Shown here one piece after another: positions 615-34,568 of a stretch of 64,000 nucleotides of DNA. Under the pieces are notes generated by a model. It made no database searches and was not told the DNA's origin. It saw only the letters and a program-made list of their open reading frames with translations. The position numbers were made by a program, and so were the translations under genes. The number at the start of each line of letters is the position of its first letter. The first letter of the stretch is position 1. This DNA is from Eledone cirrhosa (lineage: Eukaryota): NCBI GenBank assembly GCA_964016885.1, contig OZ024740.1, positions 5,890,001 through 5,954,000 on the forward strand. Reading direction: 5' to 3'.

Positions 615-2030
615 ATCAGATATCTCACAGATGTAATGTAGTTGTATATACACAGATGTCTCACAGATGTAATGTAGTTGTATATACACAGATTCCTCAC
701 AGATGTAATGTAGTTGTATATACACAGATTTCTCACAGATGTGATGTAGCTGTATATTCACAGATATCTCACAGATGTGATGTAGCTGTATACTCACAGA
801 TATCTCACAGATGTGATGTAGCTGTATATTCACAGATATCTCACAGATGTGATGTAGCTGTATACTCACAGATATCTCACAGATGTGATGTAGCTGTATA
901 CTCACAGATATCTCACAGATGTGATGTAGCTGTATATTCACAGATATCTCACAGATGTGATGTAGTTGTATATACAGAGATGTCTCACAGATGTGATGTA
1001 GCTGTATACTCACAGATATCTCACAGATGTGATGTAGCTGTATATTCACAGATATCTCACAGATGTGATGTAGCTGTATACTCACAGATATCTCACAGAT
1101 GTGATGTAGCTGTATACTCACAGATATCTCACAGATGTGATGTAGCTGTATATTCACAGATATCTCACAGATGTGATGTAGTTGTATATACAGAGATGTC
1201 TCACAGATGTGATGTAGCTGTATACTCACAGATATCTCACAGATGTGATGTAGTTGTATATACACAGATTTCTCACAGATGTGATGTAGCTGTATATTCA
1301 CAGATATCTCACAGATGTGATGTAGTTGTATATACAGAGATGTCTCACAGATGTGATGTAGCTGTATATTCACAGATATCTCACAGATGTGATGTAGTTG
1401 TATATACAGAGATGTCTCACAGATGTGATGTAGCTGTATACTCACAGATATCTCACAGATGTGATGTAGTTGTATATACACAGATTTCTCACAGATGTGA
1501 TGTAGCTGTATATTCACAGATATCTCACAGATGTGATGTAGTTGTATATACAGAGATGTCTCACAGATGTGATGTAGCTGTATATTCACAGATATCTCAC
1601 AGATGTGATGTAGTTGTATATACAGAGATGTCTCACAGATGTGATGTAGCTGTATATTCACAGATATCTCACAGATGTGATGTAGTTGTATATACAGAGA
1701 TGTCTCACAGATGTGATGTAGCTGTATACTCACAGATGTCTCACAGATGTGATGTAGTTGTATATACAGAGATGTCTCACAGATGTGATGTAGCTGTATA
1801 CTCACAGATGTCTCACAGATGTGATGTAGTTGTATATACACAGATTTCTAACAGATGTGATGTAGCTGTATATTCACAGATATCTCACAGATGTAACGTA
1901 GTTGTATATTCACAGATATCTCACAGATGTAACATAGCTGTATATACAGAGATGTCTCACATGTGTGATGTAGCTGTATACTCACAGATATCTCATAGAT
2001 GTCTCACAGATGTCATGAGACTGGATACAC
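615..2030. repeat. 36-bp minisatellite, ~39 units
   Basis: Unit tctcacagatgtgatgtag(c/t)tgtata(t/c)tcacagata, giving the 12-aa periodic ORFs; degenerate copies continue to ~2160 and at 2960-3130. Confidence 0.95.
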
Positions 2031-2159
2031 AGAGTTGAGATTTTATATACACAATTATCTTTCAGATGTGATGAGACAGGATATACAAAGGTGTCTTACA
2101 GATGTCATGAGACTGGATTCATACTGATATCTTACAACTATGGCAAAACTGATTACACA

Positions 2160-2960
2160 CAGGTGAAACTCTATATACACAGATGAGACTGTATATACAC
2201 AGATAAAACTCTATATACACAGATGAGACTGTACATACACAGATAAAACTCTATATACACAGATGAGACTGTACATACACAGATAAAACTCTATATACAC
2301 AGATGAGACTGTATATACACATATAAAACTCTATATACACAGATGAGACTGTACATACACAGATAAAACTCTATATACACAGATGAGACTGTATATACAC
2401 AGATAAAACTCTATATACACAGATGAGACTGTACATACACAGATAAAACTCTATATACACAGATGAGACTGTACATACACAGATAAAACTCTATATACAC
2501 AGATGAGACTGTATATACACAGATAAAACTCTATATACACAGATGAGACTGTATATACACAGATAAAACTCTATATACACAGATGAGACTGTATATACAC
2601 AGATAAAACTCTATATACACAGATGAGACAGTACATACACAGATAAAACTCTATATACACCGATGAGACTGTATATACACAGATAAAACTCTATATACAC
2701 AGATGAGACTGTATATACACAGATAAAACTCTATATACACAGATGAGACTGTACATACACAGATAAAACTCTATATACACAGATGAGACTGTATATACAC
2801 AGATAAAACTCTATATACACAGATGAGACTGTACATACACAGATAAAACTCTATATACACAGATGAGACTGTACATACACAGATAAAACTCTATATACAC
2901 AGATGAGACTGTATATACACCGATAAAACTCTATATACACAGATGAGACTGTATATACGC
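2160..2960. repeat. 40-bp minisatellite made of two alternating 20-mers, ~20 units
   Basis: agatgagactgta(t/c)atacac + agataaaactctatatacac. Confidence 0.95.
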
Positions 2961-3240
2961 AGATAGCTTCCAGATATAATGTGACTGGATATTCACAAAT
3001 GTCTTACAGATGTAATAAAGCTACATATACAGAGATACCTCACAGATGGAATGCGATTGAATATACACAGATGTCGCCCAGATGTAATGAGTCAGAATAC
3101 ATACAGATGTCACATAGATGTCATGAAACTGAGTAAAAGAAGGTATGTCTTAAACAGACAAAATATTAAATTGATCCTCTGTCATTCAATTATAATGTAA
3201 GCAGATGAGTAAATATTCCACAGGCACATGTACATTAACC

Positions 3241-3762
3241 TGTTGACTGCTGTGTATATTTTACACAGCTACAGTTGCTGTGTTGACTGCTGTGTATATT
3301 TTACACAGCTACAGTTGCTGTGTTGACTGCCATGTATATTTTACACAGCTAGAGTTGCTGTGTTGACTGCCGTGTATATTTTACACAGCTACAGTTGCTG
3401 TGTTGACTGCCGTGTATATTTTACACAGCTACAGTTGCTGTGTTGACTGCTGTGTATATTTTACACAGCTACAGTTGCTGTGTTGACTGCCATGTATATT
3501 TTACACAGCTACAGTTGCTGTGTTGACTGCCATGTATATTTTACACAGCTACAGTTGCTGTGTTGACTGCTGTGTATATTATACACAGCTACAGTTGCTG
3601 TGTTGACTGCTGTGTATATTTTACACAGCTACAGTTGCTGTGTTGACTGCCATGTATATTTTACATAGCTACAGTTGCTGTGTTGACTGCTGTGTATATT
3701 TTACACAGCTACAGTTGCTGTGTTGACTGCCATGTATATTTTACACAGCTACAGTTGCTGTG
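3241..3762. repeat. 40-bp minisatellite with internal hairpin, 13 units
   Basis: tgttgactgctgtgtatattttacacagctacagttgctg; gctgtgta/tacacagc is inverted within the unit. Confidence 0.95.
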
Positions 3763-4191
3763 CCAGGTTTCTTTTCAGTAAAATTACTATTTTTTAAATC
3801 AAACATTTATTAACAACACATATCTGAGTGATTGACAAATGTCACATCAATAGACTAGTAACTCCATCTAGCTTTGAAGTTATCAACTGTTGGAAAAGAG
3901 TTCAAACATGTTAGGACAAGTTATCTTGTCTACGGCACTGAAGATTTGAATGCAATACTTGGTTAAAATAACAACTACAGACTTCATAAACTGGTGTGCA
4001 CATACCGTGTGTGTCTGTGCATGTATGAAAAATACGAGAATCATGAGCCAGTTTCTGAATACATATGGCTCTTATGAATTCATACCTCATTAGTTCTGGG
4101 AGTTCACTGGAGTTTTATAGGCAACCTGTGTTTACACTAGATTTACTGCAACTAATTCAAGATAAGCTTACTATTTATGGGTCATTATTAA

Positions 4192-4485
4192 CTTTACCTT
4201 TCATCCTTACGGGATCGATAAAATAAAGTACCAGTAATACACTGGGTATTTGCTGGCCTTGTGCTTAACGTAGAAACAATTATTAAGATGAAGAATAGGG
4301 TGATGGATTGGCAGTATCGGTAGAGGGTTGGACGCCATGCTTTGCAGCAAAGAGTTACGACCCTTTATGGTCTGAGTTCAAATGCCGCTGAGGTAACTTT
4401 GCCTTTCATCCTTACGGGGTCGATAAAATAAAGTACCAGTAATACACTTGTGCCGAAAGTAGAAACAAATATTAAGATGAAGAAT
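4192..4485 (+). mobile_element. Two adjacent copies (one 5'-truncated, one near full) of a tRNA-derived SINE
   Basis: B-box-like gagttcaaatgcc; core actttgcctttcatccttacggggtcgataaaataaagtaccagtaat; tail gtagaaacaa. The second copy (~4298-4469) is bracketed by the direct repeat tattaagatgaagaat (TSD-like). Confidence 0.8.
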
Positions 4486-4750
4486 TTTAAATTAGAATAT
4501 AAAATCTAAAAGAGATGCTAGAAAGTATTTTATCTGATGCTCTAACAAATTCACTAATCTACTGTCCTGGATTGCTATTTTATTTATCTCATACGGGTGA
4601 TAGGGAAAGTTGACCCAGCAAAACATGAAATTGAGCGTCCAGAAAACAGGGAGAAATACTATAACACCATTTTATCTAGTCCTCTAACAATTCTGCCAAT
4701 TGACCCCCTTCTGTGTGTGTGTGTGTGTGTATACACATACATACAAGTGA

Positions 4751-4842
<92 letters not shown>

Positions 4843-4870
4843 TTTGCTTAAACTTTAATCTGTTATTTTA

Positions 4871-4908
<38 letters not shown>

Positions 4909-5157
4909 GGATAAATGAAACGTAATTTCATTTCTCACTCTTAGTACGGCTGTTACTTAAATATAAGTATATATACGTACATACATATATGTATACAGAC
5001 GTACAGTATTATGTATATATATACATACATGCACACATATATATATGTACGTATGGGTTTACCGAACATTTATTATAATGCTCAGTTTGTTTGTAAACAA
5101 ACAGCCCGAATTAAGCCGTACAGTGTTTAGCAACCATCGTTGCCCTTTTGTTCAACA

Positions 5158-5226
5158 CTGACAAAGGAACGATGTACTAGTTTCAAGCTTATTAGCTATC
5201 ATCAGCAACGTATACCTTCCTGCCAG
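5158..5226 (-). ncRNA. Type I minimal hammerhead ribozyme motif, inverted copy
   Basis: Minus strand reads ctggcaggaaggtatacgttg-CTGATGA-t-agct-aata-agct-t-GAAAC-ta-GTA-catcgttcctttgtcag. It differs from the + copy at the free core position N7 (U vs C) and has one stem I mismatch. Confidence 0.72.
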
Positions 5227-5518
5227 ATGATTGAACGTCTGAAAGTATATACTTTCCTTATGCATATTAACGGCTGAGCTGTCTTATTTGCATATCGAGT
5301 GAGTTAGTCGGCCGGGTGCACCGAAAACGATAAATGGATAAATGAAACAAAATTTCATTTCTCACTCTTAGTACAGCTGTTACTTAAATATAAGTATATA
5401 TACGTACATACATATATGTATACAGACGTACAGTATTATGTATATATATATACATACATTCATTCCTTTGTCAGTTAATATGCATAAGGAAAGTATATAC
5501 TTTCAGACGTTCAATCAT

Positions 5519-5587
5519 CTGGCAAGAAGGTATTCGATGCTGACGATAGCTAATAAGCTTGAAACTAGTACATCGTTCCTTTGTCAG
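5519..5587 (+). ncRNA. Type I minimal hammerhead ribozyme motif (canonical core)
   Basis: Stem I CGAUG(5535-5539)/CAUCG(5571-5575); core CUGACGA (5540-5546); stem II AGCU-AAUA-AGCU framed by U/U; GAAA (5561-5564); stem III AC-UA-GU (palindrome ACUAGU); cleavage triplet GUA (cut after 5570). Distal stem I extension 5519-5530 pairs with 5578-5587. Confidence 0.8.
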
Positions 5588-5970
5588 TGTTGAACAAAAG
5601 GGCAACGATGGTTGCTAAACACTGTACGGCTTAATTCGGGCTGTTTGTTTACAAACAAACCGAGCATGATAATAAATGTTCGGTAAACCCATACGTACAT
5701 ATATATATATGTGTGTGCATGTATGTATATATATACGTAATACTGTACGTCTGTATACATATATGTATGTACGTATATATACTTATATATATATACATAT
5801 ATATGTATAGAAATAATTTCTATAAGACTATGATTTCATATGAATGAAACAGTTCTAGTCATGTAGAAATTGTGTCTATACATAATAAAGATGCCTATGC
5901 TCTATGAATGTATTGAGTACCTTTTTTAACTGTGATTACTCTCTGACACAACTCTGGAACCTACATATTA

Positions 5971-6079
<109 letters not shown>

Positions 6080-6145: not shown

Positions 6146-7315
6146 TATATATACATATACACACATTCACATTTACATAATTCAGTTGTCAGACAAGATA
6201 TATAAGATAGTTTTCAGTTTGTTGAGAAACAAATTTTAAGTTTCATTTCTGTTGAATGTATTTGTTTAATGCATCAGTGTAAAATAATGCAGTTTTGTGC
6301 ACCAGTCTGCATACTAATATACATCTATATATGCAGTGTGTCAGATATGTCTAGTGGTTGCTATTTCTGTTTGTAATATCTGTCAGAAACCTTTCTAGGA
6401 GAACAGTTAAAACAAAATACAAACCACCAATAGAAAAAAAATTCCCTTAAAATATGTAGTTTTGCTGATGAGATGAAAGTTTTTTGGGGGTTATATTGGT
6501 GGGTTCTTGGTGGCTGAGGTGAGAGGATATTGTATTGGTAAGTACTGTAAAGTATGAAGTATGATTAAATTGAAGAAACATGATGGCCTGCTTTCAATAT
6601 CTAGTGTCTACCACATTACAGAGTGGACTGGGTGCTTTTTGTCACAGCATCAACACCACAGCCTCACAGTGGGTGTTTTTCATTGACATCAACACTGGTG
6701 AGACATGTCTCTACTCCTTTTCACTGCCTCTACTCCACTCCATAAGAAATGTCTAGTGAAGGAGGAGGACTTGAAGAGAGTTGTATCTGGTGGTATATTG
6801 AGGTGGACCTGGCTTTCCATGTTAGCATGGGTTGGACAAGGAAAGTAAATCAAGGATGTGGGATGGAAGTAGGGAACACATCCTTCTTCCATATTGACTG
6901 GAGCTGGAGAAGGGGTATGAATTAGGAAAGGGGAAGAGTGGGAGGTAAAGGACAGTGGGTGGGGGGTACAACATACAAAATGAAGAAACAGGGTAACAAC
7001 AACAACAACAAGATCTAAGGTGACCCTCATTGAGAATATTAGTTTAATGCTCAGGAAATGTGAAAAGAAAAATCAGTAGAAAACGTTTTGGGTTTTACCC
7101 TTCTTTGGAAGTAAGAACATGTACACACAGCAAATTGTAGGCCAGGTCTACATGGTAATAAGACACACACTTTATGTACACATATAAATACATTGCTACA
7201 CATTCATATCTGCAAATACACACATGTGGCTATGTTGAAATAAATACATGTAGACACATATGAACATACTGTCAGCCAGGCAGGCAGGTGTAAACACATG
7301 TGGCAGACAAATATA

Positions 7316-14768: not shown

Positions 14769-17700
14769 CAACCACATTTACAGTATGTGCTGGATGTTTT
14801 TTGTTGTGACTACTACACAACCACATTTACAGTGTGTGCTGGGTGCTTTTTGTCGTGACTACTACACAACCACATTTACAGTGTGTGCTGGATGTTTTTT
14901 GTTGTGACTCCTACACAACCACATTTACAGTGTGTGCTGGATGTTTTTTGTTGTGACTACTACACAACCACATTTACAGTGTGTGCTGGAAGTTTTTTGT
15001 CGTGACTACTACACAACCACATTTACAGTGTGTGCTGGGTGCTTTTTGTTGTGACTACTACACAACCACATTTACAGTGTGTGCTGGATGTTTTTTGTTG
15101 TGACTACTACACAACCACATTTACAGTGTGTGCTGGATGTTTTTTGTTGTGACTCCTACACAACCACATTTACAGTGTGTGCTGGATGTTTTTTGTTGTG
15201 ACTCCTACACAACCACATTTACAGTGTGTGCTGGATGTTTTTTGTTGTGACTCCTACACAACCACATTTACAGTGTGTGCTGGATGTTTTTTGTTGTGAC
15301 TCCTACACAACCACATTTACAGTGTGTGCTGGGTGCTTTTTGTTGTGACTACTACACAACCACATTTACAGTGTGTGCTGGGTGCTTTTTGTCGTGACAA
15401 CTACACAACCACATTTACAGTGTGTGCTGGGTGCTTTTTGTTGTGACTACTACACAACCACATTTACAGTGTGTGCTGGAAGTTTTTTGTCGTGACTCCT
15501 ACACAACCACATTTACAGTGTGTGCTGGGTGCTTTTCGTTGTGACTACTACACAACCACATTTACAGTGTGTGCTGGGTGTTTTTTCTTGTGACTACTAC
15601 ACAACCACATTTACAGTGTGTGCTGGATGTTTTTTGTTGTGATACCTACACAACCACATTTACAGTGTGTGCTGGATGTTTTTTGTTGTGACTCCTACAC
15701 AACCACATTTACAGTGAGTGCTGGGTGCTTTTTGTTGTGACTCCTACACAACCACATTTACAGTGTGTGCTGGGTGCTTTTTGTCATGGCACCTACACAA
15801 CCACATTTACAGTGTGTGCTGGATGTTTTTTGTTGTGACTCCTACACAACCAGATTTACAGTGTGTGCTGGGTGCTTTTTGTTGTGGCTCCTACACAACC
15901 ACATTTACAGTGTGTGCTGCGTGCTTTTTGTCATGGCACCTACACAACCACATTTACAGTGTGTGCTGGGTGCTTTTTGTTATGACTCCTACACAACCAC
16001 ATTTACAGTGTGTGCTGGATGTTTTTTGTTGCGACTCCTACACAACCACATTTACAGTGTGTGCTGGGTGCTTTTTTGTTGTGACTACTACACAACCACA
16101 TTTACAGTGTGTGCTGGGTGCTTTTTGTTGTGACTACTACACAACCACATTTACAGTGTGTGCTGGGTGCTTTTTTGTTGTGACTACTACACAACCACAT
16201 TTACAGTGTGTGCTGGGTGCTTTTTGTTGTGACTACTACACAACCACATTTACAGTGTGTGCTGGGTGCTTTTTTGTTGTGACTACTACACAACCACATT
16301 TACAGTGTGTGCTGGGTGCTTTTTGTTGTGACTACTAGACAACCACATTTACAGTGTGTGCTGGATGTTTTTTGCTGTGACTCCTACACAACCACATTTA
16401 CAGTGTGTGCTGGATGTTTTTTGCTGTGACTCCTACACAACCATATTTACAGTGTGTGCTGGATGTTTTTTGCTGTGACTACTACATAACCACATTTACA
16501 GTGTGTGCTGGGTGTTTTTTGTTGTTACTACTACACAACCAGATTTACAGTGTGTGCTGGATGTTTTTTGCTGTGACTACTACACAACCACATTTACAGT
16601 GAGTGCTGGATGTTTTTGTTGTGACTCCTACACAACCACATTTACAGTGTGTGCTGGGTGTTTTTCGTTGTGACTACTACACAACCATATTTACAGTGTG
16701 TGCTGGATGTTTTTTGTTGTGACTCCTACACAACCACATTTACAGTGTGTGCTGGGTGCTTTTTGTTGTGACTCCTACACAACCACATTTACAGTGTGTG
16801 CTGGGTGCTTTTTGTTGTGACTACTACACAACCACATTTACAGTGTGTGCTGGGTGCTTTTTTGTTGTGACTACTACACAACCACATTTACAGTGTGTGC
16901 TGGGTGCTTTTTTGTTGTGACTCCTACACAAACACATTTACAGTGTGTGCTGGATGTTTTTTGTTGTGACTCCTACACAACCACATTTACAGTGTGTGCT
17001 GGGTGCTTTTTTGTTGTGACTCCTACGCAACCACATTTACAGTGTGTGCTGGGTGCTTTTTGTTGTGACTACTACACAACCACATTTACAGTGTGTGCTG
17101 GGTGCTTTTTTGTTGTGACTCCTACACGACCACATTTACAGTGTGTGCTGGGTGCTTTTTTGTTGTGACTCCTACACAACCACATTTACAGTGTGTGCTG
17201 GGTGCTTTTTGTTGTGACTACTACACAACCACATTTACAGTGTGTGCTGGGTGCTTTTTTGTTGTGACTCCTACACAACCACATTTACAGTGTGTGCTGG
17301 GTGCTTTTTTGTTGTGACTCCTACACAACCACATTTACAGTGTGTGATGGGTGCTTTTTGTTGACACCTACACAACCACATTTACAGTGTGTGCTGGGTG
17401 TTTTTTGTTGTGACTACTACACAACCACATTTAAAGTGTGTGCTGGGTGCTGTTTGTTGTGACTACTACACAACCACATTTACAGTGTGTGCTGGGTGCT
17501 TTTTGTCGTGACTACTACACAACCACATTTACAGTGTGTGCTGGATGTTTTTTATTGTGACTACTACACAACCACATTTACAGTGTGTGCTGGATGTTTT
17601 TTGTCGTGACTACTACACAACCACATTTACAGTGTGTGCTGGGTGCTTTTTGTTGTGACTACTACACAACCACAGTTACAGTGTGTGCTGGGTGCTTTTT

Positions 17701-20700
17701 GTTGTGACTACTACACAACCACATTTACAGTGTGTGCTGGGTGCTTTTTGTCGTGACTACTACACAACCACATTTACAGTGTGTGCTGGGTGCTTTTTGT
17801 CGGGACTACTACACAACCACATTTACAGTGTGTGCTGGGTGCTTTTTGTTGTGACTACTACACAACCACATTTACAGTGTGTGCTGGATGCTTTTTGTTG
17901 TGACTCCTACACAACCACATTTACAGTGTGTGCTGGGTGCTTTTTGTTGTGACTACTACACAACCACATTTACAGTGTGTGCTGGATGTTTTTTGTTATG
18001 ACTCCTACACAACCACATTTACAGTGTGTGCTGGGTGCTTTTTGTTGTGACTCCTACACAACCACATTTACGGTGTGTGCTGGATGTTTTTTGTTGTGAC
18101 TACTACACAACCACATTTACAGTGTGTGCTGGATGTTTTTTGTCGTGACTACTACACAACCACATTTACAGTGTGTGCTGGGTGCTTTTTGTTGTGACTA
18201 CTACACAACCATATTTACAGTGTGTGCTGGATGTTTTTTGCTGTGACTACTACATAACCACATTTACAGTGTGTGCTGGGTGTTTTTTGTTGTTACTACT
18301 ACACAACCAGATTTACAGTGTGTGCTGGATGTTTTTTGCTGTGACTACTACACAACCACATTTACAGTGAGTGCTGGATGTTTTTGTTGTGACTCCTACA
18401 CAACCACATTTACAGTGTGTGCTGGGTGTTTTTCGTTGTGACTACTACACAACCATATTTACAGTGTGTGCTGGATGTTTTTTGTTGTGACTGCTACACA
18501 ACCACATTTACAGTGTGTGCTGGGTGCTTTTTGTTGTGACTCCTACACAACCACATTTACAGTGTGTGCTGGGTGCTTTTTGTTGTGACTACTACACAAC
18601 CACATTTACAGTGTGTGCTGGGTGCTTTTTGTTGTGACTCCTACACAACCACATTTACAGTGTGTGCTGGGTGCTTTTTGTTGTGACTACTACACAACCA
18701 CATTTACAGTGTGTGCTGGGTGCTTTTTTTGTTGTGACTCCTACAAAAGCACATTTACAGTGTGTGCTGGGTGCTTTTTTGTTGTGACTACTACACAACC
18801 ACATTTACAGTGTGTGCTGGGTGCTTTTGGTTGTGACTACTACACAACCACATTTACAGTGTGTGCTGGGTGCTTTTTGTTGTGACTCCTACACAACCAC
18901 ATTTACAGTGTGTGCTGGGTGCTTTTTTGTTGTGACTACTACACAACCACATTTACAGTGTGTGCTGGGTGCTTTTTTGTTGTGACTCCTACACAAACAC
19001 ATTTACAGTGTGTGCTGGATGTTTTTTGTTGTGACTCCTACACAACCACATTTACAGTGTGTGCTGGGTGCTTTTTTGTTGTGACTCCTACGCAACCACA
19101 TTTACAGTGTGTGCTGGGTGCTTTTTGTTGTGACTACTACACAACCACATTTACAGTGTGTGCTGGGTGCTTTTTTGTTGTGACTCCTACACGACCACAT
19201 TTACAGTGTGTGCTGGGTGCTTTTTTGTTGTGACTCCTACACAACCACATTTACAGTGTGTGCTGGGTGCTTTTTGTTGTGACTACTACACAACCACATT
19301 TACAGTGTGTGCTGGGTGCTTTTTTGTTGTGACTCCTACACAACCACATTTACAGTGTGTGCTGGGTGCTTTTTTGTTGTGACTCCTACACAACCACATT
19401 TACAGTGTGTGATGGGTGCTTTTTGTTGACACCTACACAACCACATTTACAGTGTGTGCTGGGTGTTTTTTGTTGTGACTACTACACAACCACATTTAAA
19501 GTGTGTGCTGGGTGCTGTTTGTTGTGACTACTACACAACCACATTTACAGTGTGTGCTGGGTGCTTTTTGTCGTGACTACTACACAACCACATTTACAGT
19601 GTGTGCTGGATGTTTTTTATTGTGACTACTACACAACCACATTTACAGTGTGTGCTGGATGTTTTTTGTCGTGACTACTACACAACCACATTTACAGTGT
19701 GTGCTGGGTGCTTTTTGTTGTGACTACTACACAACCACAGTTACAGTGTGTGCTGGGTGCTTTTTGTTGTGACTACTACACAACCACATTTACAGTGTGT
19801 GCTGGGTGCTTTTTGTCGTGACTACTACACAACCACATTTACAGTGTGTGCTGGGTGCTTTTTGTCGGGACTACTACACAACCACATTTACAGTGTGTGC
19901 TGGGTGCTTTTTGTTGTGACTACTACACAACCACATTTACAGTGTGTGCTGGATGCTTTTTGTTGTGACTCCTACACAACCACATTTACAGTGTGTGCTG
20001 GGTGCTTTTTGTTGTGACTACTACACAACCACATTTACAGTGTGTGCTGGATGTTTTTTGTTATGACTCCTACACAACCACATTTACAGTGTGTGCTGGG
20101 TGCTTTTTGTTGTGACTCCTACACAACCACATTTACGGTGTGTGCTGGATGTTTTTTGTTGTGACTACTACACAACCACATTTACAGTGTGTGCTGGATG
20201 TTTTTTGTCGTGACTACTACACAACCACATTTACAGTGTGTGCTGGGTGCTTTTTGTTGTGACTACTACACAACCACATTTACAGTGTGTGCTGGGTGCT
20301 TTTTGTCGTGACTACTACACAACCACATTTACAGTGTGTGCTGGGTGCTTTTTGTTGTGACTCCTACACAACCACATTTACAGTGTGTGCTGGGTGCTTT
20401 TTGTTGTGACTACTACACAACCACATTTACAGTGTGTGCTGGGTGCTTTTTGTTGTGACTACTACACAACCACATTTACAGTGTGTGCTGGGTGTTTTTT
20501 GTTGTGACTACTACACAATCACATTTACAGTGTGTGCTGGATGTTTTTTGTTGTGACACCTACATAACCACATTTACAGTGTGTGCTGGATGTTTTTGTT
20601 GTGACTCCTACACAACCATATTTACAGTGTGTGCTGGATGTGTTTTGTTGTGACTCCTACACAACCACATTTACAGTGTGTGCTGGGTGCTTTTTGTTGT

Positions 20701-23700
20701 GACTCCTACACAACCACATTTACAGTGTGTGTTGTGTGCTTTTTGTTGTGACTCCTACACAACCACATTTACAGTGTGTGCTGGGTGCTTTTTGTTGTGA
20801 TTCCTACACAACCACATTTACAGTGTTTGCTGGGTGCTTTTTGTCGTGACTACTACACAACCACATTTACAGTGTGTGCTGGGTGCTTTTTGTTGTGACT
20901 CCTACACAACCACATTTACAGTGTGTGCTGGATGCTTTTTGTTGTGACTACTACACAACCACATTTACAGTGTGTGCTGGATGTTTTTGTTGTGACTCCT
21001 ACACAACCACATTTACAGTGTGTGCTGGATGTTTTTTGTTGTGACTCCTACACAACCACATTTACAGTGTGTGCTGGATGTTTTTTGTTGTGACTCCTAC
21101 ACAACCACATTTACAGTGTGTGCTGGATGTTTTTTGTTGTGACTCCTACACAACCACATTTACAGTGTGTGCTGGATGCTTTTTGTTGTGACTCCTACAC
21201 AACCACATTTACAGTGTGTGCTGGATGTTTTTGTTGTGACTCCTACACAACCACATTTACAGTGTGTGCTGGATGTTTTTTGTTGTGACTCCTACACAAC
21301 CACATTTACAGTGTGTGCTGGATGTTTTTTTGTTGTGACTCCTACACAACCACATTTACAGTGTGTGCTGGGTGCTTTTTGTTGTGACTCCTACACAACC
21401 ACATTTACAGTGTGTGCTGGATGTTTTTTTGTTGTGACTCCTACACAACCACATTTACAGTGTGTGCTGGGTGCTTTTTGTTGTGACTCCTACACAACCA
21501 CATTTACAGTGTGTGCTGGGTGCTTTTTGTTGTGACTCCTACACAACCACATTTACAGTGTGTGCTGGATGTTTTTTGTTGCGACTACTACACAACCACA
21601 TTTACAGTGTGTGCTGGGTGCTTTTTGTTGTGACTCCTACACAACCACATTTACAGTGTGTGCTGGGTGCTTTTTGTTGTGACTCCTACACAACCACATT
21701 TACAGTGTGTGCTGGGTGCTTTTTGTTGTGACTCCTACACAACCACATTTACAGTGTGTGCTGGATGTTTTTTGTTGTGACTCCTACACAACCACATTTA
21801 CAGTGTGTGCTGGATATTTTTTGTTGCGACTACTACACAACCACATTTACAGTGTGTGCTGGGTGCTTTTTGTTGTGACTCCTACACAACCACATTTACA
21901 GTGTGTGCTGGGTGTTTTTTGTTGTGACTCCTACACAACCACATTTACAGTGTGTGCTGGATGTTTTTTGTTGCGACTCCTACACAACCACATTTACAGT
22001 GTGTGCTGGATGCTTTTTGTTGTGACTACTACACAACCACATTTACAGTGTGTGCTGGATGTTTTTGTTGTGACTCCTACACAACCACATTTACAGTGTG
22101 TGCTGGATGTTTTTTGTTGTGACTCCTACACAACCACATTTACAGTGTGTGCTGGATGTTTTTTGTTGTGACTCCTACACAACCACATTTACAGTGTGTG
22201 CTGGATGTTTTTTGTTGTGACTCCTACACAACCACATTTACAGTGTGTGCTGGATGCTTTTTGTTGTGACTCCTACACAACCACATTTACAGTGTGTGCT
22301 GGATGTTTTTGTTGTGACTCCTACACAACCACATTTACAGTGTGTGCTGGATGTTTTTTGTTGTGACTCCTACACAACCACATTTACAGTGTGTGCTGGA
22401 TGTTTTTTTGTTGTGACTCCTACACAACCACATTTACAGTGTGTGCTGGGTGCTTTTTGTTGTGACTCCTACACAACCACATTTACAGTGTGTGCTGGGT
22501 GCTTTTTGTTGTGACTACTACACAACCACAGTTACAGTGTGTGCTGGGTGCTTTTTGTTGTGACTACTACACAACCACATTTACAGTGTGTGCTGGGTGC
22601 TTTTTGTCGTGACTACTACACAACCACATTTACAGTGTGTGCTGGGTGCTTTTTGTCGGGACTACTACACAACCACATTTACAGTGTGTGCTGGGTGCTT
22701 TTTGTTGTGACTACTACACAACCACATTTACAGTGTGTGCTGGATGCTTTTTGTTGTGACTCCTACACAACCACATTTACAGTGTGTGCTGGGTGCTTTT
22801 TGTTGTGACTACTACACAACCACATTTACAGTGTGTGCTGGATGTTTTTTGTTATGACTCCTACACAACCACATTTACAGTGTGTGCTGGGTGCTTTTTG
22901 TTGTGACTACTACACAACCACATTTACAGTGTGTGCTGGGTGCTTTTTGTCGTGACTACTACACAACCACATTTACAGTGTGTGCTGGGTGCTTTTTGTT
23001 GTGACTACTACACAACCACATTTACAGTGTGTGCTGGGTGCTTTTTGTTGTGACTCCTACACAACCACATTTACAGTGTGTGCTGGGTGTTTTTTGTTGT
23101 GACTACTACACAATCACATTTACAGTGTGTGCTGGATGTTTTTTGTTGTGACACCTACATAACCACATTTACAGTGTGTGCTGGATGTTTTTGTTGTGAC
23201 TCCTACACAACCATATTTACAGTGTGTGCTGGATGTTTTTTGTTGTGACTCCTACACAACCACATTTACAGTGTGTGCTGGGTGCTTTTTGTTGTGACTC
23301 CTACACAACCACATTTACAGTGTGTGTTGTGTGCTTTTTGTTGTGACTCCTACACAACCACATTTACAGTGTGTGCTGGGTGCTTTTTGTTGTGATTCCT
23401 ACACAACCACATTTACAGTGTTTGCTGGGTGCTTTTTGTCGTGACTACTACACAACCACATTTACAGTGTGTGCTGGGTGCTTTTTGTTGTGACTCCTAC
23501 ACAACCACATTTACAGTGTGTGCTGGATGTTTTTTGTTGCGACTCCTACACAACCACATTTACAGTGTTTGCTGGATGCTTTTTGTTGTGACTACTACAC
23601 AACCACATTTACAGTGTGTGCTGGATGTTTTTGTTGTGACTCCTACACAACCACATTTACAGTGTGTGCTGGATGTTTTTTGTTGTGACTCCTACACAAC

Positions 23701-26700
23701 CACATTTACAGTGTGTGCTGGATGTTTTTTGTTGTGACTCCTACACAACCACATTTACAGTGTGTGCTGGATGTTTTTTGTTGTGACTCCTACACAACCA
23801 CATTTACAGTGTGTGCTGGATGCTTTTTGTTGTGACTCCTACACAACCACATTTACAGTGTGTGCTGGATGTTTTTGTTGTGACTCCTACACAACCACAT
23901 TTACAGTGTGTGCTGGATGTTTTTTGTTGTGACTCCTACACAACCACATTTACAGTGTGTGCTGGATGTTTTTTTGTTGTGACTCCTACACAACCACATT
24001 TACAGTGTGTGCTGGGTGCTTTTTGTTGTGACTCCTACACAACCAGATTTACAGTGTGTGCTGGGTGCTTTTTGTTGTGACTCCTACACAACCACATTTA
24101 CAGCGTGTGCTGGATGTTTTTTGTTGCGACTACTACACAACCACATTTACAGTGTGTGCTGGGTGCTTTTTTGTTGTGACTCCTACACAACCACATTTAC
24201 AGTGTGTGCTGGATATTTTTTGTTGCGACTACTACACAACCACATTTACAGTGTGTGCTGGGTGCTTTTTGTTGTGACTCCTACACAACCACATTTACAG
24301 TGTGTGCTGGGTGTTTTTTGTTGTGACTCCTACACAACCACATTTACAGTGTGTGCTGGATGTTTTTTGTTGCGACTCCTACACAACCACATTTACAGTG
24401 TGTGCTGGATGCTTTTTGTTGTGACTACTACACAACCACATTTACAGTGTGTGCTGGATGTTTTTGTTGTGACTCCTACACAACCACATTTACAGTGTGT
24501 GCTGGATGTTTTTTGTTGTGACTCCTACACAACCACATTTACAGTGTGTGCTGGATGTTTTTTGTTGTGACTCCTACACAACCACATTTACAGTGTGTGC
24601 TGGATGGTTTTTGTTGTGACTCCTACACAACCACATTTACAGTGTGTGCTGGATGCTTTTTGTTGTGACTCCTACACAACCACATTTACAGTGTGTGCTG
24701 GATGTTTTTGTTGTGACTCCTACACAACCACATTTACAGTGTGTGCTGGATGTTTTTTGTTGTGACTCCTACACAACCACATTTACAGTGTGTGCTGGAT
24801 GTTTTTTTGTTGTGACTCCTACACAACCACATTTACAGTGTGTGCTGGGTGCTTTTTGTTGTGACTCCTACACAACCACATTTACAGTGTGTGCTGGGTG
24901 CTTTTTGTTGTGACTACTACACAACCACAGTTACAGTGTGTGCTGGGTGCTTTTTGTTGTGACTACTACACAACCACATTTACAGTGTGTGCTGGGTGCT
25001 TTTTGTCGTGACTACTACACAACCACATTTACAGTGTGTGCTGGGTGCTTTTTGTTGTGACTACTACACAACCACATTTACAGTGTGTGCTGGGTGCTTT
25101 TTGTCGTGACTACTACACAACCACATTTACAGTGTGTGCTGGGTGCTTTTTGTTGTGACTACTACACAACCACATTTACAGTGTGTGCTGGGTGCTTTTT
25201 GTTGTGACTACTACACAACCACATTTACAGTGTGTGCTGGATGTTTTTGTTGTGACTCCTACACAACCACATTTACAGTGTGTGCTGGATGTTTTTTGTT
25301 GTGACTCCTACACAACCACATTTACAGTGTGTGCTGGATGTTTTTTGTTGTGACTCCTACACAACCACATTTACAGTGTGTGCTGGATGTTTTTTGTTGT
25401 GACTCCTACACAACCACATTTACAGTGTGTGCTGGATGCTTTTTGTTGTGACTCCTACACAACCACATTTACAGTGTGTGCTGGATGTTTTTGTTGTGAC
25501 TCCTACACAACCACATTTACAGTGTGTGCTGGATGTTTTTTGTTGTGACTCCTACACAACCACATTTACAGTGTGTGCTGGATGTTTTTTTGTTGCGACT
25601 ACTACACAACCACATTTACAGTGTGTGCTGGGTGCTTTTTGTTGTGACTCCTACACAACCACATTTACAGTGTGTGCTGGGTGCTTTTTGTTGTGACTAC
25701 TACACAACCACAGTTACAGTGTGTGCTGGGTGCTTTTTGTTGTGACTCCTACACAACCACATTTACAGTGTGTGCTGGATGTTTTTTGTTGTGACTCCTA
25801 CACAACCACATTTACAGTGTGTGCTGGATATTTTTTGTTGCGACTACTACACAACCACATTTACAGTGTGTGCTGGGTGCTTTTTGTTGTGACTCCTACA
25901 CAACCACATTTACAGTGTGTGCTGGGTGTTTTTTGTTGTGACTCCTACACAACCACATTTACAGTGTGTGCTGGATGTTTTTTGTTGCGACTCCTACACA
26001 ACCACATTTACAGTGTGTGCTGGATGCTTTTTGTTATGACTCCTACACAACCACATTTACAGTGTGTGCTGGATGTTTTTGTTGTGACTCCTACACAACC
26101 ACATTTACGGTGTGTGCTGGATGTTTTTTGTTGTGACTACTACACAACCACATTTACAGTGTGTGCTGGATGTTTTTTGTCGTGACTACTACACAACCAC
26201 ATTTACAGTGTGTGCTGGGTGCTTTTTGTTGTGACTACTACACAACCACATTTACAGTGTGTGCTGGATGCTTTTTGTTGTGACTCCTACACAACCACAT
26301 TTACAGTGTGTGCTGGGTGCTTTTTGTTGTGACTACTACACAACCACATTTACAGTGTGTGCTGGATGTTTTTTGTTGTGACTCCTACACAACCACATTT
26401 ACAGTGTGTGCTGGGTGTTTTTTGTTGTGACTACTACACAATCACATTTACAGTGTGTGCTGGATGTTTTTTGTTGTGACACCTACATAACCACATTTAC
26501 AGTGTGTGCTGGATGTTTTTGTTGTGACTCCTACACAACCATATTTACAGTGTGTGCTGGATGTTTTTTGTTGTGACTCCTACACAACCACATTTACAGT
26601 GTGTGCTGGGTGCTTTTTGTTGTGACTCCTACACAACCACATTTACAGTGTGTGTTGTGTGCTTTTTGTTGTGACACCTACACAACCACATTTACAGTGT

Positions 26701-29700
26701 GTGCTGGGTGCTTTTTGTTGTGATTCCTACACAACCACATTTACAGTGTTTGCTGGGTGCTTTTTGTCGTGACTACTACACAACCACATTTACAGTGTGT
26801 GCTGGGTGCTTTTTGTTGTGACTCCTACACAACCACATTTACAGTGTGTGCTGGATGTTTTTTGTTGCGACTCCTACACAACCACATTTACAGTGTGTGC
26901 TGGATGCTTTTTGTTGTGACTACTACACAACCACATTTACAGTGTGTGCTGGATGTTTTTGTTGTGACTCCTACACAACCACATTTACAGTGTGTGCTGG
27001 ATGTTTTTTGTTGTGACTCCTACACAACCACATTTACAGTGTGTGCTGGATGTTTTTTGTTGTGACTCCTACACAACCACATTTACAGTGTGTGCTGGAT
27101 GTTTTTTGTTGTGACTCCTACACAACCACATTTACAGTGTGTGCTGGATGCTTTTTGTTGTGACTCCTACACAACCACATTTACAGTGTGTGCTGGATGT
27201 TTTTGTTGTGACTCCTACACAACCACATTTACAGTGTGTGCTGGATGTTTTTTGTTGTGACTCCTACACAACCACATTTACAGTGTGTGCTGGATGTTTT
27301 TTTGTTGTGACTCCTACACAACCACATTTACAGTGTGTGCTGGGTGCTTTTTGTTGTGACTCCTACACAACCACATTTACAGTGTGTGCTGGGTGCTTTT
27401 TGTTGTGACTCCTACACAACCACATTTACAGTGTGTGCTGGATGTTTTTTGTTGCGACTACTACACAACCACATTTACAGTGTGTGCTGGGTGCTTTTTG
27501 TTGTGACTCCTACACAACCACATTTACAGTGTGTGCTGGGTGCTTTTTGTTGTGACTCCTACACAACCACATTTACAGTGTGTGCTGGGTGCTTTTTGTT
27601 GTGACTCCTACACAACCACATTTACAGTGTGTGCTGGATGTTTTTTGTTGTGACTCCTACACAACCACATTTACAGTGTGTGCTGGATATTTTTTGTTGC
27701 GACTACTACACAACCACATTTACAGTGTGTGCTGGGTGCTTTTTGTTGTGACTCCTACACAACCACATTTACAGTGTGTGCTGGGTGTTTTTTGTTGTGA
27801 CTCCTACACAACCACATTTACAGTGTGTGCTGGATGTTTTTTGTTGCGACTCCTACACAACCACATTTACAGTGTGTGCTGGATGCTTTTTGTTGTGACT
27901 ACTACACAACCACATTTACAGTGTGTGCTGGATGTTTTTGTTGTGACTCCTACACAACCACATTTACAGTGTGTGCTGGATGTTTTTTGTTGTGACTCCT
28001 ACACAACCACATTTACAGTGTGTGCTGGATGTTTTTTGTTGTGACTCCTACACAACCACATTTACAGTGTGTGCTGGATGTTTTTTGTTGTGACTCCTAC
28101 ACAACCACATTTACAGTGTGTGCTGGATGCTTTTTGTTGTGACTCCTACACAACCACATTTACAGTGTGTGCTGGATGTTTTTGTTGTGACTCCTACACA
28201 ACCACATTTACAGTGTGTGCTGGATGTTTTTTGTTGTGACTCCTACACAACCACATTTACAGTGTGTGCTGGATGTTTTTTTGTTGTGACTCCTACACAA
28301 CCACATTTACAGTGTGTGCTGGGTGCTTTTTGTTGTGACTCCTACACAACCACATTTACAGTGTGTGCTGGGTGCTTTTTGTTGTGACTCCTACACAACC
28401 ACATTTACAGTGTGTGCTGGATGTTTTTTGTTGCGACTACTACACAACCACATTTACAGTGTGTGCTGGGTGCTTTTTGTTGTGACTCCTACACAACCAC
28501 ATTTACAGTGTGTGCTGGGTGCTTTTTGTTGTGACTCCTAAACAACCACATTTACAGTGTGTGCTGGATGTTTTTTGTTGTGACTCCTACACAACCACAT
28601 TTACAGTGTGTGCTGGATATTTTTTGTTGCGACTACTACACAACCACATTTACAGTGTGTGCTGGGTGCTTTTTGTTGTGACTCCTACACAACCACATTT
28701 ACAGTGTGTGCTGGGTGTTTTTTGTTGTGACTCCTACACAACCACATTTACAGTGTGTGCTGGATGTTTTTTGTTGCGACTCCTACACAACCACATTTAC
28801 AGTGTGTGCTGGATGCTTTTTGTTGTGACTACTACACAACCACATTTACAGTGTGTGCTGGATGTTTTTGTTGTGACTCCTACACAACCACATTTACAGT
28901 GTGTGCTGGATGTTTTTTGTTGTGACTCCTACACAACCACATTTACAGTGTGTGCTAGATGTTTTTTGTTGTGACTCCTACACAACCACATTTACAGTGT
29001 GTGCTGGATGTTTTTTGTTGTGACTCCTACACAACCACATTTACAGTGTGTGCTGGATGCTTTTTGTTGTGACTCCTACACAACCACATTTACAGTGTGT
29101 GCTGGATGTTTTTGTTGTGACTCCTACACAACCACATTTACAGTGTGTGCTGGATGTTTTTTGTTGTGACTCCTACACAACCACATTTACAGTGTGTGCT
29201 GGATGTTTTTTTGTTGTGACTCCTACACAACCACATTTACAGTGTGTGCTGGGTGCTTTTTGTTGTGACTCCTACACAACCACATTTACAGTGTGTGCTG
29301 GGTGCTTTTTGTTGTGACTCCTACACAACCACATTTACAGTGTGTGCTGGATGTTTTTTGTTGCGACTACTACACAACCACATTTACAGTGTGTGCTGGG
29401 TGCTTTTTGTTGTGACTCCTACACAACCACATTTACAGTGTGTGCTGGGTGCTTTTTGTTGTGACTCCTACACAACCACATTTACAGTGTGTGCTGGGTG
29501 CTTTTTGTTGTGACTCCTACACAACCACATTTACAGTGTGTGCTGGATGTTTTTTGTTGTGACTCCTACACAACCACATTTACAGTGTGTGCTGGATATT
29601 TTTTGTTGCGACTACTACACAACCACATTTACAGTGTGTGCTGGGTGCTTTTTGTTGTGACTCCTACACAACCACATTTACAGTGTGTGCTGGATGTTTT

Positions 29701-32700
29701 TTGTTGTGACTCCTACACAACCACATTTACAGTGTGTGCTGGATGTTTTTTGTTGTGACTACTACACAACCACATTTACAGTGTGTGCTGGGTGTTTTTT
29801 GTTGTGACTACTACACAACCACATTTACAGTGTGTGCTGGATGCTTTTTGTTGTGACTCCTACACAACCACATTTACAGTGTGTGCTGGATGTTTTTTGT
29901 TGTGACTACTACACAACCACATTTACAGTGTGTGCTGGGTGTTTTTTGTTGTGACTACTACACAACCACATTTACAGTGTGTGCTGGATGTTTTTTGTTG
30001 TGACTCCTACACAATCACATTTACAGTGTGTGCTGGATGTTTTTTGTTGTGACTCCTACACAACCACATTTACAGTGTGTGCTGGATGTTTTTTGTTGTG
30101 ACTCCTACACAACCACATTTACAGTGTGTGCTGGATGTTTTTTGTTGTGACTCCTACACAACCACATTTACAGTGTGTGCTGGGTGCTTTTTGTTGTGAC
30201 TCCTACACAACCACATTTACAATGTGTGCTGGTTGCTTTTTGTTGTGACTCCTACACAACCACATTTACAGTGTGTGCTGGGTGCTTTTTTGTTGTGACT
30301 CCTACACAACCACATTTACAGTGTGTGATGGGTGCTTTTTGTTGTGACCCCTACACAACCACATTTACAGTGTGTGCTGGGTGTTTTTTGTTGTGACTAC
30401 TACACAACCACATTTACAGTGTGTGCTGGGTGCTTTTTGTTGTGACTACTACACAACCACATTTACAGTGTGTGCTGGGTGCTTTTTGTTGTGACTACTA
30501 CACAACCACATTTACAGTGTATGCTGGGTGCTTTTTGTTGTGACTACTACACAACCACATTTACAGTGTGTGCTGGGTGCTTTTTGTCGTGACTACTACA
30601 CAACCACATTTACAGTGTGTGCTGGGTGCTTTTTGTCGGGACTACTACACAACCACATTTACAGTGTGTGCTGGGTGCTTTTTGTTGTGACTACTACACA
30701 ACCACATTTACAGTGTGTGCTGGGTGTTTTTTGTTGTGACTCCTACACAACCACATTTACAGTGTGTGCTGGGTGCTTTTTGTTGTGACTACTACACAAC
30801 CACATTTACAGTGTATGCTGGGTGCTTTTTGTTGTGACTACTACACAACCACATTTACAGTGTGTGCTGGGTGCTTTTTGTCGTGACTACTACACAACCA
30901 CATTTACAGTGTGTGCTGGGTGCTTTTTGTTGTGACTACTACACAACCACATTTACAGTGTGTGCTGGATGCTTTTTGTTGTGACTCCTACACAACCACA
31001 TTTACAGTGTGTGCTGGGTGCTTTTTGTTGTGACTACTACACAACCACATTTACAGTGTGTGCTGGGTGTTTTTTGTTTTGACTACTACACAACCACATT
31101 TACAGTGTGTGCTGGGTGCTTTTTGTCGTGACTACTACACAACCACATTTACAGTGTGTGCTGGGTGCTTTTTGTTGTGACTCCTACACAACCACATTTA
31201 CAGTGTGTGCTGGATGCTTTTTGTTGTGACTCCTACACAACCACATTTACAGTGTGTGCTGGATGTTTTTGTTGTGACTCCTACACAACCACATTTACAG
31301 TGTGTGCTGGATGTTTTTTGTTGTGACTCCTACACAACCACATTTACAGTGTGTGCTGGATGTTTTTTTGTTGTGACTCCTACACAACCACATTTACAGT
31401 GTGTGCTGGGTGCTTTTTGTTGTGACTCCTACACAACCACATTTACAGTGTGTGCTGGGTGCTTTTTGTTGTGACTCCTACACAACCACATTTACAGTGT
31501 GTGCTGGATGTTTTTTGTTGCGACTACTACACAACCACATTTACAGTGTGTGCTGGGTGCTTTTTGTTGTGACTCCTACACAACCACATTTACAGTGTGT
31601 GCTGGGTGCTTTTTGTTGTGACTCCTACATAACCACATTTACAGTGTGTGCTGGGTGCTTTTTGTTGTGACTCCTACACAACCACATTTACAGTGTGTGC
31701 TGGATGTTTTTTGTTGTGACTCCTACACAACCACATTTACAGTGTGTGCTGGATATTTTTTGTTGCGACTACTACACAACCACATTTACAGTGTGTGCTG
31801 GGTGCTTTTTGTTGTGACTCCTACACAACCACATTTACAGTGTGTGCTGGATGTTTTTTGTTGTGACTCCTACACAACCACATTTACAGTGTGTGCTGGA
31901 TGTTTTTTGTTGTGACTACTACACAACCACATTTACAGTGTGTGCTGGGTGTTTTTTGTTGTGACTACTACACAACCACATTTACAGTGTGTGCTGGATG
32001 CTTTTTGTTGTGACTCCTACACAACCACATTTACAGTGTGTGCTGGATGTTTTTTGTTGTGACTACTACACAACCACATTTACAGTGTGTGCTGGGTGTT
32101 TTTTGTTGTGACTACTACACAACCACATTTACAGTGTGTGCTGGATGTTTTTTGTTGTGACTCCTACACAATCACATTTACAGTGTGTGCTGGATGTTTT
32201 TTGTTGTGACTCCTACACAACCACATTTACAGTGTGTGCTGGATGTTTTTTGTTGTGACTCCTACACAACCACATTTACAGTGTGTGCTGGGTGTTTTTT
32301 GTTGTGACTCCTACACAACCACATTTACAGTGTGTGCTGGGTGCTTTTTGTTGTGACTCCTACACAACCACATTTACAATGTGTGCTGGGTGCTTTTTGT
32401 TGTGACTCCTACACAACCACATTTACAGTGTGTGCTGGGTGCTTTTTTGTTGTGACTCCTACACAACCACATTTACAGTGTGTGATGGGTGCTTTTTGTT
32501 GTGACTCCTACACAACCACATTTACAGTGTGTGCTGGGTGTTTTTTGTTGTGACTCCTACACAACCACATTTACAGTGTGTGCTGGATGTTTTTTGTTGT
32601 GACTACTACACAACCACATTTACAGTGTGTGCTGGGTGTTTTTTGTTGTGACTACTACACAACCACATTTACAGTGTGTGCTGGATGCTTTTTGTTGTGA

Positions 32701-34568
32701 CTCCTACACAACCACATTTACAGTGTGTGCTGGATGTTTTTTGTTGTGACTACTACACAACCACATTTACAGTGTGTGCTGGGTGTTTTTTGTTGTGACT
32801 ACTACACAACCACATTTACAGTGTGTGCTGGATGTTTTTTGTTGTGACTCCTACACAATCACATTTACAGTGTGTGCTGGATGTTTTTTGTTGTGACTCC
32901 TACACAACCACATTTACAGTGTGTGCTGGATGTTTTTTGTTGTGACTCCTACACAACCACATTTACAGTGTGTGCTGGGTGTTTTTTGTTGTGACTCCTA
33001 CACAACCACATTTACAGTGTGTGCTGGGTGCTTTTTGTTGTGACTCCTACACAACCACATTTACAATGTGTGCTGGGTGCTTTTTGTTGTGACTCCTACA
33101 CAACCACATTTACAGTGTGTGCTGGGTGCTTTTTTGTTGTGACTCCTACACAACCACATTTACAGTGTGTGATGGGTGCTTTTTGTTGTGACTCCTACAC
33201 AACCACATTTACAGTGTGTGCTGGGTGTTTTTTGTTGTGACTACTACACAACCACATTTACAGTGTGTGCTGGGTGCTTTTTGTTGTGACTACTACACAA
33301 CCACATTTACAGTGTGTGCTGGGTGCTTTTTGTTGTGACTACTACACAACCACATTTACAGTGTATGCTGGGTGCTTTTTGTTGTGACTACTACACAACC
33401 ACATTTACAGTGTGTGCTGGGTGCTTTTTGTCGTGACTACTACACAACCACATTTACAGTGTGTGCTGGGTGCTTTTTGTCGGGACTACTACACAACCAC
33501 ATTTACAGTGTGTGCTGGGTGCTTTTTGTTGTGACTACTACACAACCACATTTACAGTGTGTGCTGGGTGTTTTTGTTGTGACTCCTACACAACCACATT
33601 TACAGTGTGTGCTGGGTGCTTTTTGTTGTGACTACTACACAACCACATTTACAGTGTGTGCTGGGTGCTTTTTGTCGTGACTACTACACAACCACATTTA
33701 CAGTGTGTGCTGGGTGCTTTTTGTCGGGACTACTACACAACCACATTTACAGTGTGTGCTGGGTGCTTTTTGTTGTGACTACTACACAACCACATTTACA
33801 GTGTGTGCTGGGTGTTTTTTGTTGTGACTCCTACACAACCACATTTACAGTGTGTGCTGGGTGCTTTTTGTTGTGACTACTACACAACCACATTTACAGT
33901 GTGTGCTGGATGCTTTTTGTTGTGACTCCTACACAACCACATTTACAGTGTGTGCTGGGTGCTTTTTGTTGTGACTACTACACAACCACATTTACAGTGT
34001 GTGCTGGGTGTTTTTTGTTTTGACTACTACACAACCACATTTACAGTGTGTGCTGGGTGCTTTTTGTCGTGACTACTACACAACCACATTTACAGTGTGT
34101 GCTGGGTGCTTTTTGTTGTGACTCCTACACAACCACATTTACAGTGTGTGGTGGGTGCTTTTTGTTGTGACTACTACACAACCACATTTACAGTGTGTGC
34201 TGGATGTTTTTTGTCGTGACTACTACACAACCACATTTACAGTGTGTGCTGGATTCTTTTTGTTGTGACTCCTACACAACCACATTTACAGTGTGTGCTG
34301 GGTGCTTTTTGTTGTGACTACTACACAACCACATTTACAGTGTGTGCTGGATGCTTTTTGTTGTGACTCCTACACAACCACATTTACAGTGTATGCTGGG
34401 TGCTTTTTGTTGTGACTACTACACAACCACATTTACAGTGTGTGCTGGGTGCTTTTTGTTGTGACTCCTGCACAACCATTTTACAGTGTGTGCTGGGTGC
34501 TTTTTGTTGTGACTCCTACACAACCATTTTAAAGTGTGTGGTAGGTGTTTTTGTCATGACTCCTACAT
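14769..34568. repeat. 49-bp satellite, ~400 units, ~19.8 kb
   Basis: Consensus accacatttacagtgtgtgctgg(g/a)tg(c/t)tttttgttgtgact(c/a)ctacaca; unit length varies mostly 48-50 through the T run. Confidence 0.98.

Follow-up and report, generated by a model that had tools for sequence, protein, structure and literature searches.

A high-copy canonical hammerhead retrozyme of Eledone cirrhosa, likely mobilised by Penelope-like elements and likely carrying its own snRNA-type promoter

The non-LTR retrozymes described from a coral, a mussel and the axolotl (PMC7229834, PMC7761336) are low-GC tandem repeats with units of 150-450 bp that contain a canonical type I hammerhead ribozyme and no open reading frame. 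Circular RNAs have been demonstrated for them, and the papers cited say that neither a promoter nor a motif indicating the mobiliser is known; metazoan retrozymes are described as seeming to lack promoters, and in 2020 the transcription and the inserter of animal retrozymes were both listed as open (PMC7761336). A preprint argues, from co-occurrence and pseudo-LTR (pLTR) homology in 35 species, that retrozymes are non-autonomous Penelope-like elements (PLEs) (bioRxiv 10.64898/2026.07.22.740005), and non-autonomous Chlamys such as MRC1 (PMC8557442) are likewise described as tandem hammerhead repeats parasitic on PLEs. EN+ PLEs, that is, those of the Neptune/Nematis type and PAc (PMC8557442, PMC3846280, PMC11167929), form partial tandems with an inverted 5'-truncated copy and a tail at one end only, insert into AT-rich targets and contain a hammerhead within their repeat; the tail is reported to lie between two start sites of the reverse transcriptase (RT) (PMC11167929).

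The retrozyme described here occupies positions 4903-5788 of a 64,000-nt window of the E. cirrhosa genome (contig OZ024740.1, 5,890,001-5,954,000), the window being the whole stretch of DNA that was analysed, in surroundings with a GC fraction of 0.32 (4001-6000). It shares with the coral, mussel and axolotl elements the hammerhead class, the low-GC tandem unit and the lack of an open reading frame, and differs from them in possessing a promoter-like module and the tail and inversion signature of a PLE. With EN+ PLEs it shares all of the insertion features listed above, whereas it lacks their open reading frame, has a canonical rather than a minimal hammerhead, a tail of about 50 nt rather than 30-40 nt, and an octamer-TATA module in place of a CCAAT-type promoter, and its ends show 2-5 nt of TA microhomology, whereas PAc is reported to prime without homology (PMC11167929). 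The best reading is a canonical type I retrozyme that is likely mobilised by PLEs and likely has an snRNA-type promoter of its own. On balance, we think it probable that the window holds one insertion of a high-copy non-coding retrozyme, copied into (TA)n by a PLE RT/GIY-YIG protein acting in trans, a parasitism of the kind proposed in the preprint and for Chlamys.

Two unequal arms meet head to head in the insertion. The long arm (4903-5455, minus strand) comprises a 5'-truncated partial unit (unit positions ~303-428) and one full unit, and terminates at end site 2, past the tail, inside a (TA)n target tract (4875-4902). The tail (4903-4957, minus strand), with a hairpin at 4913-4933 (fold z -2.4 over 4903-4975), is the stretch of about 50-55 nt that separates end sites 1 and 2; the site 1 motif TACTTATATTTA (4958-4969, minus strand) is read through on this arm. 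The direct repeat with a 427-bp period that had been annotated in a first pass is present (4903-5023 and 5330-5450, 98%), and its second copy of the tail-side repeat (5330-5450, minus strand) shows the tail continuing into the next unit. The short arm (5474-5788, plus strand; unit positions 65-377) has neither octamer nor tail and stops at site 1 (TACTTATAT, 5780-5788) within TA-rich DNA. The two arms align over 318 nt and are joined by a filler (5456-5473, plus strand), of which 5463-5474 duplicates 5576-5587, just past the cut site, likely through a template switch. The predicted snRNA-type promoter (5245-5293, minus strand) consists of the octamer ATGCAAAT (5293-5286), a TCAG element (5277-5274) and a TATA-like box (5252-5245), and would place a transcription start at about 5226-5220.

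The plus-strand hammerhead (5519-5588) is as first annotated, with stem I CGATG (5535-5539) and CATCG (5571-5575), core CTGACGA (5540-5546), GAAA (5561-5564), AC-TA-GT and a GTA triplet (5568-5570) with a predicted cut after A5570; stem I is extended and helix III is the palindrome ACTAGT. The minus-strand copy (5169-5226) has an extended stem I, core CTGATGA (5205-5199), GAAA (5184-5181) and a predicted cut between 5175 and 5174. The first-pass annotation was right that this second copy exists and gave N7 as its only core change; a further difference is a U.U mismatch in stem I, at pair 1.3. The 4-bp stem II that it described is present in both window copies with U.U as the basal pair. A descriptor requiring four contiguous stem I pairs, run over both strands of the 64 kb, matched the plus copy only. 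The window motif has CUGANGA, GAAA and NUH around three helices of canonical length, with the ACTAGT palindrome as helix III. By the definitions of PMC4209133, in which canonical metazoan type I motifs have a helix I of 6 bp, a helix II of 4 bp and a helix III of 1-2 bp with a palindromic loop, it is canonical metazoan type I and not, as it had been labelled, a minimal PLE hammerhead. No Rfam family reached its gathering score anywhere in the window, the plus copy had no Rfam hammerhead match, and the minus copy scored 20.1 bits with HH9 against a gathering score of 52. The other Rfam matches of the window by E value were dismissed as TA-repeat miRNA noise. The minimum-energy fold of the monomer is predicted to mispair the core, the active fold not being the lowest, which fits a dependence on dimers by analogy with the axolotl motifs (PMC7229834); among these, HHR_Amex2 also has U.U at the base of helix II and is reported to cleave at 22% per hour in monomeric form and more efficiently when dimeric (PMC7229834).

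A reading of the two hammerheads as a functional head-to-head pair is not supported; they lie on opposite strands, one per strand. Opposite-strand pairs 100-700 bp apart are reported among the minimal hammerheads of Schistosoma (PMC4209133). The fold-back of the window is an insertion by-product and no working ribozyme pair, and the locus by itself is unable to release a unit-length circle; in a transcript running through the entire insertion, the plus core is predicted to be sequestered within a long hairpin. With one hammerhead per strand, and the octamer on the minus arm only, the window copy is probably a dead-end product.

Elsewhere in the genome (3.0 Gb searched), exact matches to the 34-nt core pattern number 4,016, against none for its reversed control, so the hammerhead is not due to chance. 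Broader hammerhead patterns match 23,207 times (reversed control 0) and 28,053 times (control 2) genome-wide, a density of about one motif per ~107 kb, which makes the family a sizeable component of the genome. A 286-nt query yielded 2,174 candidates; identity among the 40 that were scored is 94-100%. Between subfamilies A, A2, B and C identity is 79-94%, and a sister family, D, stands at about 60%; judged by the 99-100% identity of its best 40 matches, subfamily B is young. Units measure 420-540 nt, follow the order promoter-like module, hammerhead, TA-rich hairpins, site 1, tail, site 2, and form tandem arrays of 2-9 units in A-C and 30 in D. The 428-nt unit contains no protein-coding region, frames of at least 150 aa in 60 loci belonging to neighbouring repeats or to mostly simple-repeat DNA, and the absence of an ORF with RT and GIY-YIG domains means that it is not an autonomous PLE. 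Copy number and geometry uphold the original proposal of a non-autonomous ~427-nt hammerhead-bearing retroelement family with partial tandems and inversions of the Penelope type. That proposal did not include the tail signature with its two end sites, and the promoter-like module and sister families had also escaped it. Four related families (A-C, D, E and F) combine a hammerhead with the octamer-TATA module; the superfamily pattern matches 33,985 times, a figure that overstates the superfamily because 15 of the first 100 matches belong to a different, unrelated repeat in which visual inspection showed no hammerhead stems. Family E is represented by loci L194, L227 and L234, with the hammerhead and the same octamer-TATA module, and family F, with repeated octamer-like motifs and a longer helix III, by L088, L093, L229-L231, L233 and L235.

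Preferential conservation of the core among copies, which had been put forward as a mark of the family, was not observed: change is flat, at about 1.0% per site in the core versus about 1.2% in stem II and flank, because inserted copies decay neutrally. When core positions were freed, the count rose from 23,207 to 25,747, about 1% per site, which points to the same neutral decay and to no large core-mutant subfamily. Variation of at least 10% across 84 loci is found in 4 of the 43 columns of the hammerhead, namely N7, loop II and the two partners of pair 1.3, and in 37 of 214 columns outside it, a comparison biased by the anchoring of the segments on part of the core. Stem I pair 1.3 (190 of 203 segments parsed), tallied by locus, is G.U in 56, A-U in 30, U.G in 23, C-G in 2, U-A in 2, U.U in 6 and a G/C mismatch in 1. 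The proposed covariation was borne out, stems covarying between subfamilies and with the 60%-identical sister family. Across 10 copies, 92.7% of the cells of the named structure are paired and 6 of its 15 pairs are changed on both sides, a result that none of 500 shuffles equalled; most double changes come from two family D rows, that is, from one lineage. In family D both helices I and II are altered on both sides, and helix II has four standard pairs, the basal U.U that replaces G10.1-C11.1 being a feature of families A-C; family D also matches HH9 along the whole length of the model (E 3e-8, 36.5 bits versus the gathering score of 52).

Insertion geometry was compared in 114 loci, 65 from position-ordered pattern lists and 49 top BLAST matches, which gave 189 arms, 184 of them away from locus edges. 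Adjacent inverted pairs are head to head in 56 of 56. Apart from 23 pairs with at least one unclassifiable end, every pair (33 of 33) has one site-1 and one site-2 end, and none has two alike; site 2 lies about 50 nt beyond site 1, and the tail is on one end only in all 33. Penelope integration is constrained by this finding that the two arms never shared one site in the 33 classifiable pairs. TA-like DNA abuts 110 of 131 site-1 and site-2 ends, and because the flanks are mostly (TA)n, target-site duplications are not legible. The 184 5' ends are scattered and show no pile-up, one falling at the cut site and seven at the predicted start, where about 5 are expected; 72 arms are unpaired, and tandems are common. 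At three loci (L033, L048 and L049) neither arm contains the other, so that the pair is not one cDNA folding back and two primings are inferred; at L140 two private variants are common to both arms. Families D and F likewise have two end sites. A 30-unit array of family D (L241-L242, G000:C1:5738000-5752700) has a 466-nt period and a short inverted arm, and its two ends are at site 1 and site 2.

The host genome contains several autonomous families with RT and GIY-YIG domains (PF01541 search, 10,597 candidates, 150 of them scored), with 95-99% identity among copies and a cysteine linker that by eye is of the Neptune/Nematis type. Their two ends lie 40-68 nt apart in (TA)n, one per arm; young autonomous PLEs here leave the same two-end pattern as the retrozyme. 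The suggested linkage of the unit to GIY-YIG/RT ORFs was not found, none of 80 loci having a pLTR homologous to the unit; the preprint relies on pLTR homology, whereas the evidence here is insertion geometry. A 12-mer near site 2 occurs, within the 1.12 Mb searched, only in the retrozyme element (20 times) and in PLE family P3 (20 times), and the likeness of the tail to two PLE families is nominal (p 0.004-0.02, failing correction for 45 tests). RT-like frames beside L013, L023 and L034 were rejected as a partner, since they looked like neighbouring or target elements. The young autonomous PLE family P1 (L081:2518-2273 on the minus strand, L092 and L093) has a hammerhead-like motif with a U3-A8 core variant (TTGAAAA), a variant reported from Schistosoma (PMC4209133), and P3 has a more degenerate version of the motif. 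In L091, L094, L098 and others a hammerhead recurs whose helix II is long and whose helix III is of the TATATA type, and at L096:2197-6853 an RT-like element forms a 1.7-kb inverted repeat (99%) that has a copy of the retrozyme family at its centre.

A tandem copy would be transcribed from the octamer-TATA module, reading through into the next unit; two hammerheads on the same strand would pair via ACUAGU and cut, and ligation would close the unit-length RNA into a circle. A PLE enzyme would then nick each of the two target strands and start two cDNAs, one from site 1 and the other from site 2. Both would run backwards across the cut sites and halt at a variable point, and the two would be joined head to head, the window fold-back being such a product. 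Since arms cross the cut sites and the predicted start, the template was a circle or an uncut multimer; with a single 5' end at a cut site, it was not a cut linear monomer. That the same element and the same PLE mobiliser use an uncut linear multimer, with the hammerhead acting late or in end-trimming and arrays growing by local duplication, is rather unlikely. The sole purified PLE is reported to have used uncut RNA, PAc inserting unprocessed RNA in vitro and hammerhead mutants having no effect (PMC11167929), and the monomer's predicted lowest-energy fold is inactive. Local duplication is also observed in long arrays (a dimer repeat in L167, 14 shared variants in the 30-unit array), so that such arrays do not prove rolling-circle copying. 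The complete set of canonical loops and stems is nevertheless preserved across 40% divergence, efficient dimer cutting would make linear multimers short-lived, and the retrozymes of three animals yield circles (PMC7229834); this analogy with the three tested animals, together with the conserved ribozyme, favours a circular template over an uncut multimer.

Two other explanations dispense with a separate retrozyme or with a PLE. The copies could be solo pLTR debris from an autonomous PLE that escaped detection, given that their insertion signature is identical to that of autonomous PLEs, that the PLE sampling covered 150 scored GIY-YIG candidates out of 10,597, and 80 loci, and that homology between retrozyme and pLTR is reported in Xenopus (bioRxiv 10.64898/2026.07.22.740005). 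Against this, the first 30 loci and the 5' flanks of 51 loci show no common non-unit upstream sequence, the tail abuts the next unit directly, and the sampled autonomous pLTRs have a different promoter (CCAAT-GAGCCAC in 6 of 7) and different hammerheads, which leaves debris improbable. A DNA transposon of the MITE or foldback kind, excising at TA targets and carrying the hammerhead as a passenger, would account for the long inverted repeat with TA flanks; it is very improbable, as the outer ends are unlike (site 1 versus site 2) and the inner ends variable, fixed terminal inverted repeats occur in 0 of 114 loci, and the covarying stems, the 72 unpaired arms and the common tandems also speak against it.

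The module just upstream of the hammerhead is a candidate promoter. In families A-C, D, E and F, ATGCAAAT is kept 40-42 nt upstream of a TATA-like box, and the extended stem I of the ribozyme begins about 25 nt after that box. Sequence comparison suggests that the octamer-TATA module is likely an snRNA-type promoter resembling that of host U6 genes: the octamer lies at -76 and -77 in the two best-scoring U6 loci of the host, and in a tandem U6 cluster ATGCTAAT lies at -78 and TATA at -31. Octamer and TATA are 45-47 nt apart in three distinct host U6 promoters, the retrozyme spacing being 3-7 nt shorter. The octamer was not at that position in two other top U6 loci, and it was absent from 17 of 17 U1/U2 upstream regions and from 7 of 7 autonomous pLTR regions checked; of twelve weaker U6 loci, six have unrelated upstream DNA and six were not located by the search pattern. 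A TCAG element near -57 is common to the U1/U2 upstream regions and is similar to one found in families A, E and F. Position-weight scores are modest (p<=0.05 in 5 of 10 for U1/U2 and 3 of 10 for U6), and subfamily C, an abundant one, deviates in its octamer and has lost 8 nt after the TATA; with these departures and the spacing unlike that of U6, the promoter reading is a lead. Newt satellite 2 is presumably a hammerhead repeat. Its snRNA-type internal promoter has reported Pol II activity (Coats et al. 1994, cited in PMC2220036), whereas the promoter here is predicted; newt satellite hammerheads are also mentioned in PMC7229834. In a tandem cluster of U1 genes, one gene has a family D copy (L271:1-613) upstream of it, and in two copies of the U6 cluster (L217 and L218) a SINE-like insertion separates the promoter module from the gene.

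The general link between retrozymes and PLEs is already in print; what the present family adds is PLE evidence at the level of insertions and a candidate snRNA-type promoter in four families. The preprint answers the mobiliser question by co-occurrence and homology only, and its main text does not contain the words tail, mollusc, cephalopod or octopus, whereas the strict one-tail geometry is mechanistic genomic evidence. A search of the literature found no account of this family, of a retrozyme tail signature or of a host-matched promoter; the family may be named in Repbase, Dfam or subscription papers, which lay outside that search. The family supplies testable priming sites and a testable promoter alongside young autonomous elements with the same target. 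A broader reading, tentative and somewhat short of probable, is a superfamily of at least four retrozyme families, SINE-like in being assembled from three borrowed parts (the promoter of an snRNA gene, a hammerhead of the canonical class and the two-site region at which Penelope elements prime) and not pLTR-derived, which would be self-transcribed, circularised and inserted by Neptune-type enzymes that prime both strands in a fixed site-1/site-2 order.

Other repeats of the window include the end of another TA-associated repeat (4839-4880), with 40 matches among the examined loci, and a SINE-like repeat (4189-4485) in two partial copies 205 bp apart. A 49-bp satellite of 404 copies (14769-34567) resembles part of a dispersed repeat at 6609-6675, and a 28-bp satellite with 811 copies and several minisatellites of 36-40 bp occupy 41291-63997 and 617-3762.
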